Source of the DNA: an uncultured Gammaproteobacteria bacterium
GTDB lineage: Bacteria; Patescibacteriota; Microgenomatia; UBA1406; GWC2-37-13
Assembly (NCBI GenBank): GCA_964521305.1
Contig: CAZFQZ010000001.1
Location: forward strand, 22-64,021
Length of the DNA: 64,000 nucleotides
Reading direction: 5' to 3'
Shown: one piece after another, positions 39,239 to 52,146 of the stretch
Layout of the letters: each line of letters begins with the position of its first letter
Position numbering within the stretch: the first letter of the stretch is position 1
Program-made: the position numbers and the translations under genes
The notes under the pieces: generated by a model
The model's database searches: none
The model's input: only the letters and a program-made list of their open reading frames with translations
Told to the model about the DNA's origin: nothing

Positions 39239-42200
39239 ATGGTTACGAGTACGGAATCCGGTTCCGGCACAGCGGATAGCATTATCCAGGAAGCCAAAGA
39301 TAGCGCAAACAGGGAAATAAACGCTGCAACAACAGAAGAACAAAAACAGGTGTTAGCCGATAAACTGAAAAACGAATTGAAGGATACCGACAAACAGGCA
39401 AAGCAGGCGGCTAAAGACATAAAAAAAACAGAGGCGGAAAAACAGGAATTGAAGAAAAAACAAGCTCTTTCCTTAGTACGCCTGTTGGAAGCGGCACAAC
39501 ACGAAGATATTCCGATTGCAAAAAATAAACCTAAAGCACAGAAGGTTTTGGAGGAGCTTTCGAAACGGCTGGAAAAACAATCACTCTCCAATTCAACCCT
39601 TGCTGCGATCGAAGAGGGTCTTAAAGATTACTTGACCGGCGATAAGGATATCACGGTTTCCAAACCCGGCGAAACGAAAACACAATTCGAAAGGGATTTT
39701 GATGTGATGAAGCAAAGCGACAAACGAGCGGCGGAGTTCGTCGGTAAGGCGCTTATTGATCAAAAAAGTCAATTCGATTTGGAAGAGTCCGATATGAAAC
39801 AGAAGTTCGGCGATGAATCTGAACAGGCAACTCCTTCACCCGAATTACCATCCTCACCTGACCAAGAATTCCCGGATTCAATGGATGCGAACGGAAGAAG
39901 AAAATATTTCGGTCCCGATGCCGTCGACAAGATAATGGCGAATATAAAAGTGGAGGATGCGGACAAACTGCACGATTATATGATTACGTATGATTCCGCA
40001 TATGGACAAGCATTTGAAGCATATTACGGACCTAAATTAGCATCCGCCCCGCACAGGAATCTCATGGCTGCGTTATATAATCCGCAGGCATTTATCAAAT
40101 ATGTAGAAGCTGAAAAATTAAAAATCGCAAAATCGGGAATTTCGGATGAGGAGGTCCGGAAAAAAGTCTCAGAAAAAATAAGAGAAGATGTATCCGATAT
40201 CGTCGATAGGTTTTTTATCCAGCTTGCTCGGGAACGGGCAACAAAACCGTTCGAAGAAATTGTCAGGGAGGATTTTTATCACGGTATCGGCATTACGTTG
40301 ACGACATTTAAAACAGCGCTTGCCAATTTATCTTCACGTTTGGAAACAATAGAAAAAGAGAGAGCGAATAAGAAATTTCCCCCATTACTTGAATTATTCA
40401 AGGATACCGAGCAGACTGTTGAATCAGAGGAAGTTGAATTAGGAGAAGGTAAAGATAGGGTTGTAAAGCCCAGATTACGAATAAAACCTATTCCTAAACC
40501 TGAACCGGTCAGCTTGAGTGAGTTTGTCAAAAACAACATAGAACTCCTGGTGAGTGAAAAAAGCCATATCCGGGAATATTTGCATGATGGAAGATCTATC
40601 TATTATCATCCGTCAGGCAAGGATGGATTCTATGCAGGTTTGGGAGGATATGCCGAACGTATGCAAACGACAGACATAGATACGTTATTCAGTTTACCCG
40701 ATGGCCAGATTATAAAGGACGCCTACCAACTGTATAGTAAATTTTTATTTGAACAGTTCGCAAAGCAGGATTGGAAGCACGAACCGAACCAGTTTATTAC
40801 CGAATTGGAATCCAGGTACACCGCTATGGAAAGTGAAGTTATACAGATGTTAAAGAAAATGTATTCGGATGTACCGCCGGACCGTTTGGAAAATGCCGTA
40901 TATATGGGTGTCGGTATTTCGCGCGCCATTTTTTTGAACGAACCGGAAATGGCAGCGTATGCGGATCCGGTATTAGACGAAAAAGGTGGAGGCGTAGGCG
41001 CAAGTTATTACACGAATGATACCGCAGCTTTAAATGCTCTTAATCCGATGCACTGGATTATGCGTTGGCAGGGAGAACAGCAGATCTACCCGTTTTTGTT
41101 CGCGCCGATAGATGGGGTACACGATTTAATGAAACACGGATGGGATCACAACAAAATACTTGATTTGGGAAAATCATATTTTGATTCGTATACGAAAGGC
41201 CGTAAGAATTTAAGCGGGAAAACACTGTTTATTGACGAGCTCATAAATATGGGGCGCACGGGAGGTCCCGGTACCAGAAGGGGCTGGCGTCACTATTTTG
41301 CCAATGAAGGCCACCTCGTTTTCAAAAAAACTACGGAAGGAATCCAGACAACCAATATTGATGCGCTAAAAACATGGAAAGCCCTGGAAAATATCGGGTA
41401 CGAGGTTGTATATGATATGGTGATCAACGGCAGGATTCCCGGAGAGCTTTTAAGCGCGAAAAATTCCCAGTGGGCTAAAGAGCGCAGCGATTTTTTTTCA
41501 TATTTATTTACTAAATATTTTGATCAACCAGCAGAGGAATTGGCAGGATATCTTGAGAAGATACGTACGGGTGGCGCAAGAGACGCAGCACTAAAGAGAA
41601 TCAGGGACCATGAGGTAGCGCCCGGAAGCGTCAATGAAGAAATAGAAAAAGAGGTTTCCGGTATTTTTTTGCATCGTGTTTTGGCAAGGGTTTTGGTTCA
41701 GCGCCTTCCAACGCGTATCATACAGGATGATCGAGATAGATTTTCGGATACTGGTTCAAGCAGGTATAAACAGTTGCGTTTGAAACTTGGTTTGGATATC
41801 GATCAATTTGATAAAATGATGAAAAATCTTGGTTTGGCCGAACAAATGCTCAGAAGAAATGTAAGTAAGGAAATAAAAGATCTGTTGACCTTACAAGGCG
41901 CAACAGATTTACAGAATATTGATATGTCGAAGATTAAATATGTACTTGATGATGCAACATTAAGGACACTGTTGGCGAAAGCGAATTTATCACAGCCGGA
42001 AATCGATCAGGCTGCAAAACTTCTTGAGATGATCCGGACACAATTTGCCAACGAGGAGTCTTTAAATACGTATGCGGCAGAGCGAAAGAAAAATCCATTT
42101 CCTTTCTCTTTGGCGATCGATGAGATCGATTGGAGTCTGATGGCATTTCGTGGATCAGGAGCCCGGATGATTGCGCGGGCGGTCGGCGACATAAATCTAT

Positions 42201-42892
42201 TTGAAAAAAACCTATGGCTGGGTTGTATCAGGCAATTAAAAGATACGCTCCAGGAAATTGCGACGAACGGTAAAAAAGACTTCAGTCCCCTTATAGAAAT
42301 GCTGCAAAAGGTAAAGGAAGCATACGGCGAGGTACACGGACACAACCCGCAATCATATGCGAATATCCACCGGTTGGCAGCCGGAATGATCGCTTACTTT
42401 AAAAAAGACACGATGGCAAAAGGGCTGCTGAATATTCTCAGGCCGTGGCGGCTCGGCAAACCAAGTTCCATAGCAGCGGAAATGGCAGGAGGCCGTTCCG
42501 CAGCAGTCTGGGAATGGGATGCGGTTGATGTCGACAACTTCATCGTCGCTCTTGAGACTAAACGGCTTTTGCCCAGGGATAGATACGATCCTTCCAAACC
42601 ACGGGTATACGAACCGATCTGGTTTAACTTTGCGGGCAGGATGATTAAACTTCCGGAAAAGCTTACATTGCCATTCAAGATTTTCGGAAAAAATGAGTTT
42701 AATCTTTTCAGGAGACGCGCGCCGGATTATAAAATTGCCTATTCAAATAAATTACGTAAAGAGCACGGAGCAAAATGGTATAACTTGGTATTTGATTTTG
42801 CGGCAAAATACGGACCTTTGTTCATGGCGTTCATCCTGTGGAAATTATTGAAAGACGCGTTGGATGAAGCGCAGGGCAAGAAAAAGAAGTAA
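39239..42892 (+). CDS. 1217-aa ORFan: N-terminal K/E-rich coiled coil, large globular alpha-rich body, short C-terminal hydrophobic segment and KKKK tail
   Basis: Uninterrupted 3.65-kb ORF. No signal peptide and no P-loop or other catalytic motif recognised. The C-terminus YGPLFMAFILWKLL...GKKKK could be a tail anchor. Confidence 0.75.
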   Translation: MVTSTESGSGTADSIIQEAKDSANREINAATTEEQKQVLADKLKNELKDTDKQAKQAAKDIKKTEAEKQELKKKQALSLVRLLEAAQHEDIPIAKNKPKAQKVLEELSKRLEKQSLSNSTLAAIEEGLKDYLTGDKDITVSKPGETKTQFERDFDVMKQSDKRAAEFVGKALIDQKSQFDLEESDMKQKFGDESEQATPSPELPSSPDQEFPDSMDANGRRKYFGPDAVDKIMANIKVEDADKLHDYMITYDSAYGQAFEAYYGPKLASAPHRNLMAALYNPQAFIKYVEAEKLKIAKSGISDEEVRKKVSEKIREDVSDIVDRFFIQLARERATKPFEEIVREDFYHGIGITLTTFKTALANLSSRLETIEKERANKKFPPLLELFKDTEQTVESEEVELGEGKDRVVKPRLRIKPIPKPEPVSLSEFVKNNIELLVSEKSHIREYLHDGRSIYYHPSGKDGFYAGLGGYAERMQTTDIDTLFSLPDGQIIKDAYQLYSKFLFEQFAKQDWKHEPNQFITELESRYTAMESEVIQMLKKMYSDVPPDRLENAVYMGVGISRAIFLNEPEMAAYADPVLDEKGGGVGASYYTNDTAALNALNPMHWIMRWQGEQQIYPFLFAPIDGVHDLMKHGWDHNKILDLGKSYFDSYTKGRKNLSGKTLFIDELINMGRTGGPGTRRGWRHYFANEGHLVFKKTTEGIQTTNIDALKTWKALENIGYEVVYDMVINGRIPGELLSAKNSQWAKERSDFFSYLFTKYFDQPAEELAGYLEKIRTGGARDAALKRIRDHEVAPGSVNEEIEKEVSGIFLHRVLARVLVQRLPTRIIQDDRDRFSDTGSSRYKQLRLKLGLDIDQFDKMMKNLGLAEQMLRRNVSKEIKDLLTLQGATDLQNIDMSKIKYVLDDATLRTLLAKANLSQPEIDQAAKLLEMIRTQFANEESLNTYAAERKKNPFPFSLAIDEIDWSLMAFRGSGARMIARAVGDINLFEKNLWLGCIRQLKDTLQEIATNGKKDFSPLIEMLQKVKEAYGEVHGHNPQSYANIHRLAAGMIAYFKKDTMAKGLLNILRPWRLGKPSSIAAEMAGGRSAAVWEWDAVDVDNFIVALETKRLLPRDRYDPSKPRVYEPIWFNFAGRMIKLPEKLTLPFKIFGKNEFNLFRRRAPDYKIAYSNKLRKEHGAKWYNLVFDFAAKYGPLFMAFILWKLLKDALDEAQGKKKK

Positions 42893-42907
42893 ACATTTTA
42901 TGATATC

Positions 42908-51449: not shown

Positions 51450-51809
51450 ATGGGTAAGAATTACACGCCATTAAATGTCGATGCATTGAAGGGTAACAAA
51501 AGCAACTTGATGAACACAATACTCCTTATTATTGCGACGATGACTGCGCTTGTTATGGTAGTTTTGCTGTTTGTGCTCATCCAGAAAAAAACCCAACAAT
51601 CAACAACAAATGGAGCGCAGTCGCCGCCACCCGCACTACCTACCGTTGTTGAAATACCCACGTCAATACCGACACCGGTCCCATCAGAATCGCCGACTCT
51701 TGAGATGTCGCCACCGGTCGCGACTTCATCGCCCGAACCTTCGTCGATATTAACACCCTTAGGTGTGACGCCCACACAGGCGGCAACACAAAGTCCATTA
51801 TTAAAATGA
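51450..51809 (+). CDS. membrane-anchored Pro/Ser/Thr-rich hypothetical protein
   Basis: 119 aa with TM (ILLIIATMTALVMVVLLFVLI) followed by a PST-rich extended region. Confidence 0.55.
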   Translation: MGKNYTPLNVDALKGNKSNLMNTILLIIATMTALVMVVLLFVLIQKKTQQSTTNGAQSPPPALPTVVEIPTSIPTPVPSESPTLEMSPPVATSSPEPSSILTPLGVTPTQAATQSPLLK

Positions 51810-51831
51810 TAAAGGCTGTATCATAATTACT

Positions 51832-52146
51832 ATGACACATTATTTGGCTCAAAGCATGACCGTCGGCGGCCAAGAAATTCAGGGTCCTTTACAGGGAATC
51901 AGTACGATCGGTGATCTTATCTCCCGTGTTAGCTCGTTTTTATTCCCTATTGCCGGTATCATTCTTCTGGTGGTTTTTATTTGGGGAGGGTATGATTTCA
52001 TGATGTCCCAAGGGAGCGCGGATAAAATAAAAGGAGCATGGGCAAAGTTGACAACAGGCGTTATAGGTTTTGTTCTACTGGCATTATCCTATTTGCTCGT
52101 GAAGCTGATAGAGCGGATATTCGGCCTCAATACCGGGATATTCTAA
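51832..52146 (+). CDS. T4SS-pilin-like (TrbC/VirB2-like) two-TM protein, paralog D
   Basis: [69 protein letters not shown] has the same hairpin signature as paralogs A-C. Confidence 0.6.
   Translation: MTHYLAQSMTVGGQEIQGPLQGISTIGDLISRVSSFLFPIAGIILLVVFIWGGYDFMMSQGSADKIKGAWAKLTTGVIGFVLLALSYLLVKLIERIFGLNTGIF

Follow-up and report, generated by a model that had tools for sequence, protein, structure and literature searches.

A block of eight genes (A to H, positions 39239-52146) on contig CAZFQZ010000001.1 of assembly GCA_964521305.1 raises the question of whether it encodes a secretion machine of an undescribed kind or the parts of a known one. We analyzed it within a 64,000-nucleotide stretch of this contig, hereafter the window, from a Roizmanbacteria-like member of the candidate phyla radiation (CPR), also called Patescibacteria. 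The initial annotation proposed an undescribed apparatus that lacks the ATPase VirB4 and is driven by a ClpC-like protein. However, a Patescibacteria-specific type IV secretion system (T4SS) with VirB2-like pilin arrays has already been described, and these arrays are especially abundant in Microgenomatia (Quinonero-Coronel et al. 2025, PMC12102498). We give slightly better than an even chance to the reading that the block holds the envelope parts of this known Patescibacteria-type T4SS/pilus system, carried as a vertically inherited, origin-proximal island in Roizmanbacteria-like CPR bacteria. The positions, strands and lengths of all eight open reading frames (ORFs) were confirmed. The parts list of the initial annotation also holds, with its pilin-like paralogues, VirB6-like polytopic protein, anchored peptidase of the papain fold, giant protein and ClpC-like ATPase, and the block is conserved.

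A, 39239..42892, + strand: 1217 aa, no signal peptide and no transmembrane segment
B, 42908..43711, + strand: 267 aa, with a signal peptide, a Cys-rich ectodomain and a C-terminal VirB2-like pilin hairpin
C, 43722..45377, - strand: 551 aa, polytopic in the membrane, with a C-terminal tail rich in Gly; candidate for a divergent VirB6-like platform/channel subunit
D, 45421..45843, - strand: 140 aa, bitopic; an N-terminal transmembrane segment is followed by a Pro-rich linker and a conserved outer domain of ~75 aa
E, 45853..46923, - strand: anchored at its N-terminus; an S/T/P/Q-rich linker leads to an extracytoplasmic Peptidase_C39_2 domain
F, 46980..51434, + strand: 1484-aa ClpC-type double-ring AAA+ protein
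Insertion in F, 49803..50708, + strand: residues 942-1243, where ClpC has its ClpP-docking loop
Zinc-ribbon motif of F, 51147..51215, + strand: residues 1390-1412, C-terminal CxxC-x17-CxxC
G, 51450..51809, + strand: 119-aa bitopic protein with a P/S/T-rich outer tail
H, 51832..52146, + strand: 104-aa VirB2-like pilin, a two-transmembrane hairpin

Pilins and a VirB6-like candidate

VirB2-like pilin genes (PF18895 or PF04956) are expected of a Patescibacteria-type T4SS locus, and they are present here. H matches the Pfam family T4SS_pilin at 37.8 bits (E=2e-9; gathering cut-off 26.6), and it reaches 33 bits against NF045849 (Mbov_0395 pilin-like conjugal transfer protein), under the cut-off of that model. 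Residues 194-254 of B score 26.5 bits against T4SS_pilin, just below the same cut-off of 26.6. A hydropathy scan, which we used for all transmembrane segments given by residue here, places those of B at 7-25, 195-213 and 242-260, and the ectodomain of about 160 aa contains at least 10 cysteines that are invariant across 30 orthologues. Comparison of B with VirB2 (TrwL) and with VirB5 by hhalign gave no match. H and B are both VirB2-like pilins, B with an added disulfide-rich ectodomain. The initial annotation recognized these two and did not mention a further pair in the window. At a distance of 13 kb from the island, tandem T4SS_pilin genes lie at 25347-25724 (-) and 25721-26026 (-), with 28.1 and 19.1 bits, respectively. 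This second small array adjoins a sigma factor of the extracytoplasmic function (ECF) type (24728-25276) and a family-less 202-aa polytopic protein (23900-24508), and the additional pilins match the arrays reported for Microgenomatia (PMC12102498).

Beside B lies C, for which the initial annotation counted at least nine transmembrane helices. Hydropathy supports only seven strong segments, while the confident AlphaFold2 model (predicted local distance difference test, pLDDT, 82.8; predicted template-modelling score, pTM, 0.72) has about nine long helices. The family of C is large, with 3820 representatives (50% clustering, E≤0.001), and 25 of its members gave no Pfam match even at E≤5; there was likewise no match in NCBIfam or PHROGs and no meaningful sequence relative in the PDB. 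When the model was compared with 350,542 PDB chains by Foldseek, the top two matches were both TrwI/VirB6 of R388: 7o3v_F, at a weak E of 0.044 (probability 0.95, template-modelling score (TM-score) 0.34, root-mean-square deviation 11.6 Å), and 8rtd_L (E=0.18, probability 0.72). Other VirB6 chains rank below these two, and none of the matches reaches E≤0.001.

With known VirB6/TrbL proteins (TrwI of R388, 7o3v/8rtd; PrgH of pCF10), C shares a polytopic topology of five or more transmembrane segments, a Gly-rich C-terminal tail and a VirB2-type pilin gene next door. It differs from them in being longer (551 aa, where PrgH and TrwI have 266-342 aa), in having no Pfam match, and in a TM-score of 0.34 and profile-profile probabilities of only 1-2%. 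By hhalign, C matched nine VirB6 proteins of plasmids of mating-pair formation class T (MPF-T) with a probability of 1.1% and PrgH of pCF10 with a probability of 2.1%; both matches are short and local and fall on one invariant motif of C (SP-IF...P-x7-W), at P=0.02-0.05. Because the unrelated control pair D and PrgL gave P=0.022, we dropped these matches as evidence. Taking structure, topology and gene context together, we consider it moderately probable that C is a VirB6-like platform. Such a platform would fit the published survey, which found VirB6 in Microgenomatia to be "scarce", "suggesting extreme sequence divergence" (PMC12102498).

Conservation of the block and proteins A, D, E and G

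We compared the locus with two sets of relatives. The first comprises the best 80 of 338 relatives found with a profile of C among GTDB species genomes; the second comprises 80 metagenome loci kept from a search with the insertion of F as anchor. Labels such as L003 denote individual relative loci, which were mapped by tblastn and blastp, and the 33 loci with at least 8 kb on both sides are here called well flanked. All 80 GTDB loci kept are Roizmanbacteria, Microgenomates or Patescibacteria metagenome-assembled genomes (MAGs), and the homologues of C carry the source names Roizmanbacteria or Microgenomates. The gene content of the window is also of CPR type (mevalonate pathway, ATP-dependent DNA ligase, DUF2298). 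Upstream of the block and of F are the following features.

rpmH (ribosomal protein L34), 37682..37816, + strand: 44-aa translation; marker of the origin-proximal rpmH-yidC-jag backbone
yidC, 37825-38658, + strand: Pfam 60KD_IMP
jag/khpB, 38686-39186, + strand: Pfam KH_KhpA-B plus R3H
Promoter-like site TTGACA-17-CATAAT, 46945..46973, + strand: 11 of 12 consensus positions, last base 7 nt before the ATG of F; a consensus match only

The genes rpmH, yidC and jag share their strand with A and B, and 52 bp separate jag from A; PF00468 is found at the rpmH position in the relative locus L081 also. F, G and H run in one direction, 15 bp (F-G) and 22 bp (G-H) apart, and the promoter-like site would make the transcript of F leaderless or near-leaderless.

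Dozens of genomes of Roizmanbacteria (Microgenomatia, CPR) share the order rpmH-yidC-jag / A-B / C-D-E / F-G-H / recF. In relatives, it usually takes the form DUF2298 / leuS-(rpmH)-yidC-jag-A-B / C-D-E / F-(G)-(~220-aa HExxH membrane protein)-H / (pyrH-like)-recF. Seen in 80 GTDB and 80 metagenome loci, the arrangement is far above chance. B adjoins C in 54 of 59 loci, and among the 33 well-flanked loci jag is present in 32, F in 29, H in 27, recF in 24, D in 21 and E in 20. In the metagenome loci F-G-H-recF is nearly constant. Across both sets, H comes after F almost wherever the downstream flank is available; the content of the D-E region varies between relatives. Median identity to the window protein is 69% for F against 32-49% for A-E and H (32% for A, 44% for C and, in 45 loci, 35% for D), with 55-64% for the flanking housekeeping genes; G is weakly conserved.

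The block also comes apart, and it does so along particular lines. A-B-C is inverted en bloc in four loci (L040, L048, L050, L051) and is kept in L003, L042 and L079 though D to H are absent, while F alone is missing in L021, L049, L062, L067 and L076. Whether the ClpC-like gene co-occurs with the pilin and VirB6-like genes was a question raised at the outset. It does so near C in the 29 of 33 loci given above, but A-B-C stands without an adjoining F in the other four (L003, L042, L076, L079), and when the insertion of F is the anchor A-B-C is absent upstream in 5 of 28 metagenome loci with a full upstream flank (L143, L144, L150, L159, L160). In at least L143, its place is taken by secDF, a hydrogenase subunit and a gene of the metallo-beta-lactamase (MBL) fold. 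Because there are both A-B-C loci without F and F-G-H loci without A-B-C, we treat [A-B-C] and [F-G-H] as sub-modules that can separate; the D/E region that lies between the two is variable. We regard A-B-C as a unit because the triad stays together through inversions and deletions and is complete in 57-59 of 59 loci. Three MAGs each have two contigs that carry C plus B (L007/L061, L028/L055 and L054/L073), and these duplicates could be paralogous islands or strain mixtures in bins. A mobile element or prophage was ruled out by the even GC content, the lack of integrase and phage families (PHROGs included) and the synteny across species.

The constant partner A was at first called an ORFan. 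This does not hold, since an ORF of the same size adjoins C in 57 of 59 loci and is split by a frameshift in the remaining two; about ten loci have an ORF that agrees with A in size and position and yet is invisible to BLAST. The block was likewise described as nearly all membrane or ORFan proteins, from which A also has to be excepted, having an amphipathic C-terminal helix only and no transmembrane segment. Its N-terminal ~270 aa are a variable K/E-rich coil. The conserved body that follows (residues 270-1217) is mainly alpha-helical, and many of its charged and aromatic residues are invariant. At the C-terminus, the conserved amphipathic helix is followed by a Lys-rich GKKKK tail ("...EAxGKKK" conserved). 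We found no match to A in Pfam, NCBIfam, PHROGs or PDB sequences, the PDB having been searched with a profile as well. A confident AlphaFold2 model of residues 270-1217, made from a 20-sequence alignment of homologues collected from the loci, reached a pLDDT of 82.2 and a pTM of 0.84. Beside its predominant alpha-helices it has two small beta regions, and Foldseek against the PDB and BFVD returned nothing above a probability of 0.14. The lack of a Walker A motif and the largely alpha-helical model led us to reject the idea that A is a degenerate VirB4. A is a fast-evolving cytoplasmic family of 1,200 aa, constantly beside B and C, with no detectable fold relative. The data would be compatible both with a membrane-associated cytoplasmic scaffold and with a secreted cargo.

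As for the smaller proteins, residues 186-325 of E match PF13529 at 35.5 bits (cut-off 24) over profile positions 3-142 of 143, and the motifs GCGPTT (211) and SHYFW (306) supply the expected Cys and His. E has a transmembrane segment at 10-28 and no sequence relative in the PDB. It is bitopic with an outward-facing domain, and Pfam finds no ATP-binding cassette (ABC) exporter in the block, unlike the situation of bacteriocin-processing C39 peptidases. We consider E to be a probable wall- or surface-protein-cleaving enzyme. C39_2 is not a known VirB1 family, and the best argument that E acts on the wall is that wall hydrolases of different families occupy similar positions in relatives: the interval between C and F holds an anchored Peptidase_M15_4 in L136 and a CHAP protein in L129 (24.4 bits, just under the 26-bit cut-off). 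CHAP, like C39_2, has a papain-type fold. D (transmembrane segment 8-26) and G (24-42) have no family match in Pfam or NCBIfam, nor has D in PHROGs, and hhalign found no similarity of D to VirB8 or PrgL. In many relatives, L002, L004 (3493-4185) and L009 among them, a polytopic protein of ~220 aa with the motif PGT-x-x-HE-x-x-HF (HExxH) is encoded between G and H. It has no Pfam match, its gene is absent from the window, and it may be a membrane metalloprotease.

The ClpC variant F and the competing readings

F carries the Pfam domains Clp_N, AAA, AAA_lid_9, AAA_2 and ClpB_D2-small, and among PDB sequences it is closest to B. subtilis ClpC/MecB (E=4e-231), with which it is colinear. As in ClpC/MecB, the N-domain, D1, a short M-domain of the ClpC type, D2 and D2-small follow each other colinearly, with the Walker A motifs of D1 and D2 at residues 483 and 822. 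F differs from ClpC/MecB in a duplicated N-domain (a low-complexity N-terminus and two Clp_N domains instead of one, the extra N-domain being found in this genome), in a D1 histidine, in an insertion of ~300 aa and in a C-terminal zinc ribbon. In the D1 pore loop (48552-48569, residues 525-530), SHRG takes the place of KYRG, and 34 of 41 orthologues share this change from Tyr to His; F retains intact Walker B motifs and an intact GYVG pore loop in D2. The zinc ribbon occurs in 40 of the 41 orthologues, with or without the insertion. F is a ClpC orthologue and, in our reading, the lineage's own Hsp100.

Residues 358-941 of F correspond to ClpC 79-664 and residues 1244-1367 to ClpC 680-803, with ~300 aa in place of ClpC 665-679, which we take to be the stretch with the VGF ClpP-docking loop. 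The earlier proposal that repeats replace the ClpP-docking region is thereby borne out. The insertion has four units of ~45 aa (H-x-F-S-P-x-G-x-E-I...W...W...L-x-x-Y-F) joined by variable low-complexity linkers, and contains ~60 residues that are invariant in 20 orthologues, including an invariant 13-residue stretch. In all 80 metagenome loci kept, the insertion lies inside a ClpC-like gene. At the site of the ClpP loop, the 41 orthologues have either the four-repeat insertion (270-365 aa) or a K/E-rich linker of 45-160 aa, and by eye we saw no VGF-type motif there in any of them. About half of the orthologues are without the repeat insertion, in the same genomic context. The loss of the docking loop suggests that F probably acts as a ClpP-independent unfoldase; ClpB, ClpL, ClpG and ClpV are Hsp100 proteins that, like F, have no ClpP-docking tripeptide. 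A literature search on Patescibacteria, ClpC and ClpP turned up no description of such a ClpC variant.

A family scan with Pfam of nearly all ORFs of at least 100 aa in the 64-kb window found no VirB4, VirD4, VirB11 or relaxase family, in agreement with the initial annotation, and the ORFs without a family match have no Walker A motif. Neither D, G nor any other ORF of the block matches VirB3/PrgI or TrsD in Pfam or NCBIfam. Among 56 Roizmanbacteria entries of Table S1 of the survey, VirB4 is listed as present in 41 (PMC12102498), and its absence from the window therefore does not imply that the genome lacks it. For seven island-bearing genomes, that table gives VirB4 as "Yes" in five (L016, L039, L057, L058, L066) and "No" in two, both drafts (L044, L074) (PMC12102498); the T4SS ATPase is therefore usually encoded elsewhere in these genomes.

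This separation accords with what is published. T4SS genes of Microgenomatia lie near rpmH, rnpA, dnaA and dnaN with their components dispersed, and only 22.6% of VirB3 homologues in this group are near virB4 (PMC12102498). The island resembles the Patescibacteria T4SS in its monoderm CPR host, its several PF18895 pilins, its chromosomal and origin-proximal location in the rpmH region, the lack of a relaxase, the presence of a peptidase or hydrolase gene in the locus, and the dispersal of components in Microgenomatia. It differs in that VirB4, TrsD, VirB3 and VirD4 are neither in it nor near it, in that its polytopic protein C is invisible to VirB6/PrgH sequence profiles, and in that it adds the 1,200-aa A and the bitopic D and adjoins a remodelled ClpC. 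The main text of the survey makes no mention of Clp, yidC or C39 (PMC12102498). With the Prg/Pcf system of pCF10, the island shares a monoderm envelope, a polytopic protein that is here a VirB6-like candidate, and an anchored enzyme that here is a putative wall hydrolase (the VirB1-like PrgK in pCF10), the counterparts in island relatives including the CHAP and M15 enzymes between C and F. In contrast to the island, pCF10 has no VirB2 pilin, and only in pCF10 are PrgJ (VirB4), PrgI (VirB3) and PcfC (VirD4) contiguous with PrgH.

In the reading that we favour, the island would supply the non-ATPase envelope parts of a monoderm type IV secretion/pilus system derived from the MPF-FATA class. C would be a very divergent VirB6-like platform that the published survey missed in Microgenomatia. 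The pilins would enter the membrane via Sec/YidC, and a VirB4 ATPase from another part of the genome would assemble them at C, while E would open the wall, as VirB1/CHAP hydrolases do in Gram-positive systems. A would serve as a cytoplasmic scaffold, tethered to the membrane through the amphipathic helix and Lys tail at its C-terminus, or else be a cargo. F would have gained its C-terminal zinc ribbon and, in this sub-lineage, the four-repeat domain on the side that faces ClpP.

Several observations weigh against this reading. There is no VirB4, TrsD, VirB3 or VirD4 in the window, and no VirB4-sized ORF with a Walker A motif within 10 kb of C in the 80 loci; the link to a VirB4 system is therefore one of family resemblance and not of adjacency. 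VirB4 is listed as absent from 15 of the 56 Roizmanbacteria entries of Table S1, all draft genomes and two of them island-bearing (PMC12102498). The assignment of C to VirB6 is weak, given the missing Pfam match, the Foldseek E of 0.044 at a TM-score of 0.34 and the low hhalign probabilities. The whole neighbourhood is syntenic, housekeeping genes included, so conservation alone is no proof of a functional unit, and all relatives of C that were kept come from Roizmanbacteria-like genomes.

The lack of a nearby VirB4 can also be read as the initial annotation read it, in the sense of a self-contained apparatus whose motor is F, docked through its repeats and zinc ribbon and threading substrates or extracting pilins. 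The same architecture could reflect a conversion of ClpC to secretion, in which F docks by these elements on the VirB6-like/pilin module and feeds it unfolded cargo; A, fast-evolving and with a conserved Lys-rich C-terminal tail, would be the candidate cargo. In favour of such a role, the insertion coincides with the site of ClpP docking on the face where substrates exit, and it is strongly constrained, as its ~60 invariant residues show; the VGF-type loop is missing, the zinc ribbon is near-universal, and F, G and H are closely spaced on one strand, with H after F in nearly all loci. No other nucleoside triphosphatase (NTPase) is found within 10 kb, and no canonical VirB4 set adjoins C in the relatives, a point on which the initial annotation stands. 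A precedent of this kind is ClpV, the dedicated Hsp100 of type VI secretion, and a secretion-dedicated F would, if true, be its T4SS counterpart. However, the T4SS is published, and with VirB4 listed for most Roizmanbacteria in Table S1 (PMC12102498), the ATPase is present elsewhere in most of these genomes. F is the most conserved protein of the block, as expected of a housekeeping chaperone, about half of its orthologues sit in the same context without the repeats, and recF and jag equal it in synteny. Nor is there the strict co-occurrence with secretion genes that a ClpV-like role would imply: A-B-C and F-G-H each occur without the other, and only F-G-H is near-constant, as is recF. The tie of F to the pilin/VirB6-like module is only positional, consisting of shared strand and spacing with H. 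We therefore do not uphold the undescribed VirB4-less, ClpC-driven apparatus, which we consider very improbable, and we give the conversion of ClpC to secretion little chance.

Two further readings do without F as a motor. The genes might form no functional unit at all, being unrelated envelope, chaperone and other genes held together by a collinear origin-proximal backbone (leuS-rpmH-yidC-jag ... pyrH-like-recF) in a fairly narrow lineage. The housekeeping flanks are indeed as syntenic as the block (jag 32, recF 24 and F 29 of 33), and adjacency in this lineage is therefore weak evidence for function; the restriction of the kept relatives to Roizmanbacteria or Microgenomates and the variable D-E content agree with this. 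Against it, A-B-C inverts as one block and outlives the loss of D to H; two pilins, a polytopic protein with VirB6 as its best structural matches and a position for an anchored hydrolase make up the membrane module expected of a monoderm T4SS; and the different hydrolase families at similar positions point to selection on function and not only on order. We judge this reading unlikely. Alternatively, A-B-C, with or without D, E and H, could be a lineage-specific surface-filament or adhesion system that reuses folds of the VirB2 and VirB6 type, is independent of VirB4 and serves, for example, in host attachment. A large disulfide-rich ectodomain on B would suit binding, the fast evolution of A, B and D is common among host-interaction proteins, and VirB4 is missing within 10 kb of C throughout the 80 loci. 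Yet we know of no VirB2-type pilus that is assembled without an ATPase of the VirB4 family. The two island-bearing drafts and the 15 of 56 Roizmanbacteria without a listed VirB4 would favour such a filament, but these genomes are drafts, and among the entries of Table S1 the scaffold-level RIFOXYC2_FULL_38_9 (1.20 Mb) is given as "No" where several single-contig assemblies of 1.217 Mb from the same sample series are given as "Yes" (PMC12102498). A filament of this kind seems doubtful to us.

The rest of the window and the significance of the island

Several other features of the window stand apart from the island. A complete-looking mevalonate operon (17317-23894, -) encodes HMG-CoA (3-hydroxy-3-methylglutaryl-coenzyme A) reductase, thiolase-like and HMG-CoA-synthase-like proteins, three GHMP kinases and diphosphomevalonate decarboxylase; this pathway is unusual for bacteria in general. 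The ORFs at 14528-16360 (+, 610 aa), 13009-13611 (+) and 13766-14308 (+), the latter two coding for small membrane proteins, have no Pfam match and no Walker A motif, and the 610-aa protein has no NCBIfam match either. The DNA ligase at 28101-29888 (+) is ATP-dependent and of the archaeal/eukaryotic type, with three domains. Upstream of recF, a uridine monophosphate (UMP) kinase of archaeal type (pyrH_arch, 181 bits) is fused to an S-adenosylmethionine (SAM) methyltransferase (53163-54536, +), and the same fusion of ~444 aa is found in relatives. It overlaps the 5' end of a gene with ribbon-helix-helix (RHH) and nucleotidyl-transferase domains (52202-53518, -) by ~350 bp; with so long an overlap on opposite strands, one of the two called starts is probably wrong. 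Just after recF, three HhH-GPD base-excision glycosylase genes and radC lie in a row (55791-58672, +), and beyond them are a Y-family polymerase (59041-60267, -) and a LexA-like S24 peptidase (60387-60959, -). The cumulative GC skew rises steadily over all 64 kb. The window contains rpmH-yidC-jag and recF and does not contain dnaA or dnaN, which means that this genome has a split cluster of origin-type genes.

The CPR/Patescibacteria make up a large share of bacterial diversity. In the only member that is both cultured and genetically tractable, the T4SS is essential to living on a host, and it was shown to be essential in Southlakia epibionticum (Wang et al. 2023, as cited in PMC12102498). 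What is new here is a candidate for the missing Microgenomatia VirB6, a constant partner A, a variable wall-hydrolase position and an undescribed ClpC architecture. C offers a concrete candidate for the missing VirB6-like platform, in a family of thousands of sequences for which there is no Pfam model, and its constant partners are the ectodomain-bearing pilin B and the 1,200-aa A. The wall-hydrolase position between C and F is filled by different enzyme families in different lineages. F, for its part, represents an undescribed Hsp100 architecture that combines the absence of the ClpP loop with a structured insertion on the exit face, a zinc ribbon and a D1 histidine, and this ClpC variant merits structural study regardless of any link to secretion.

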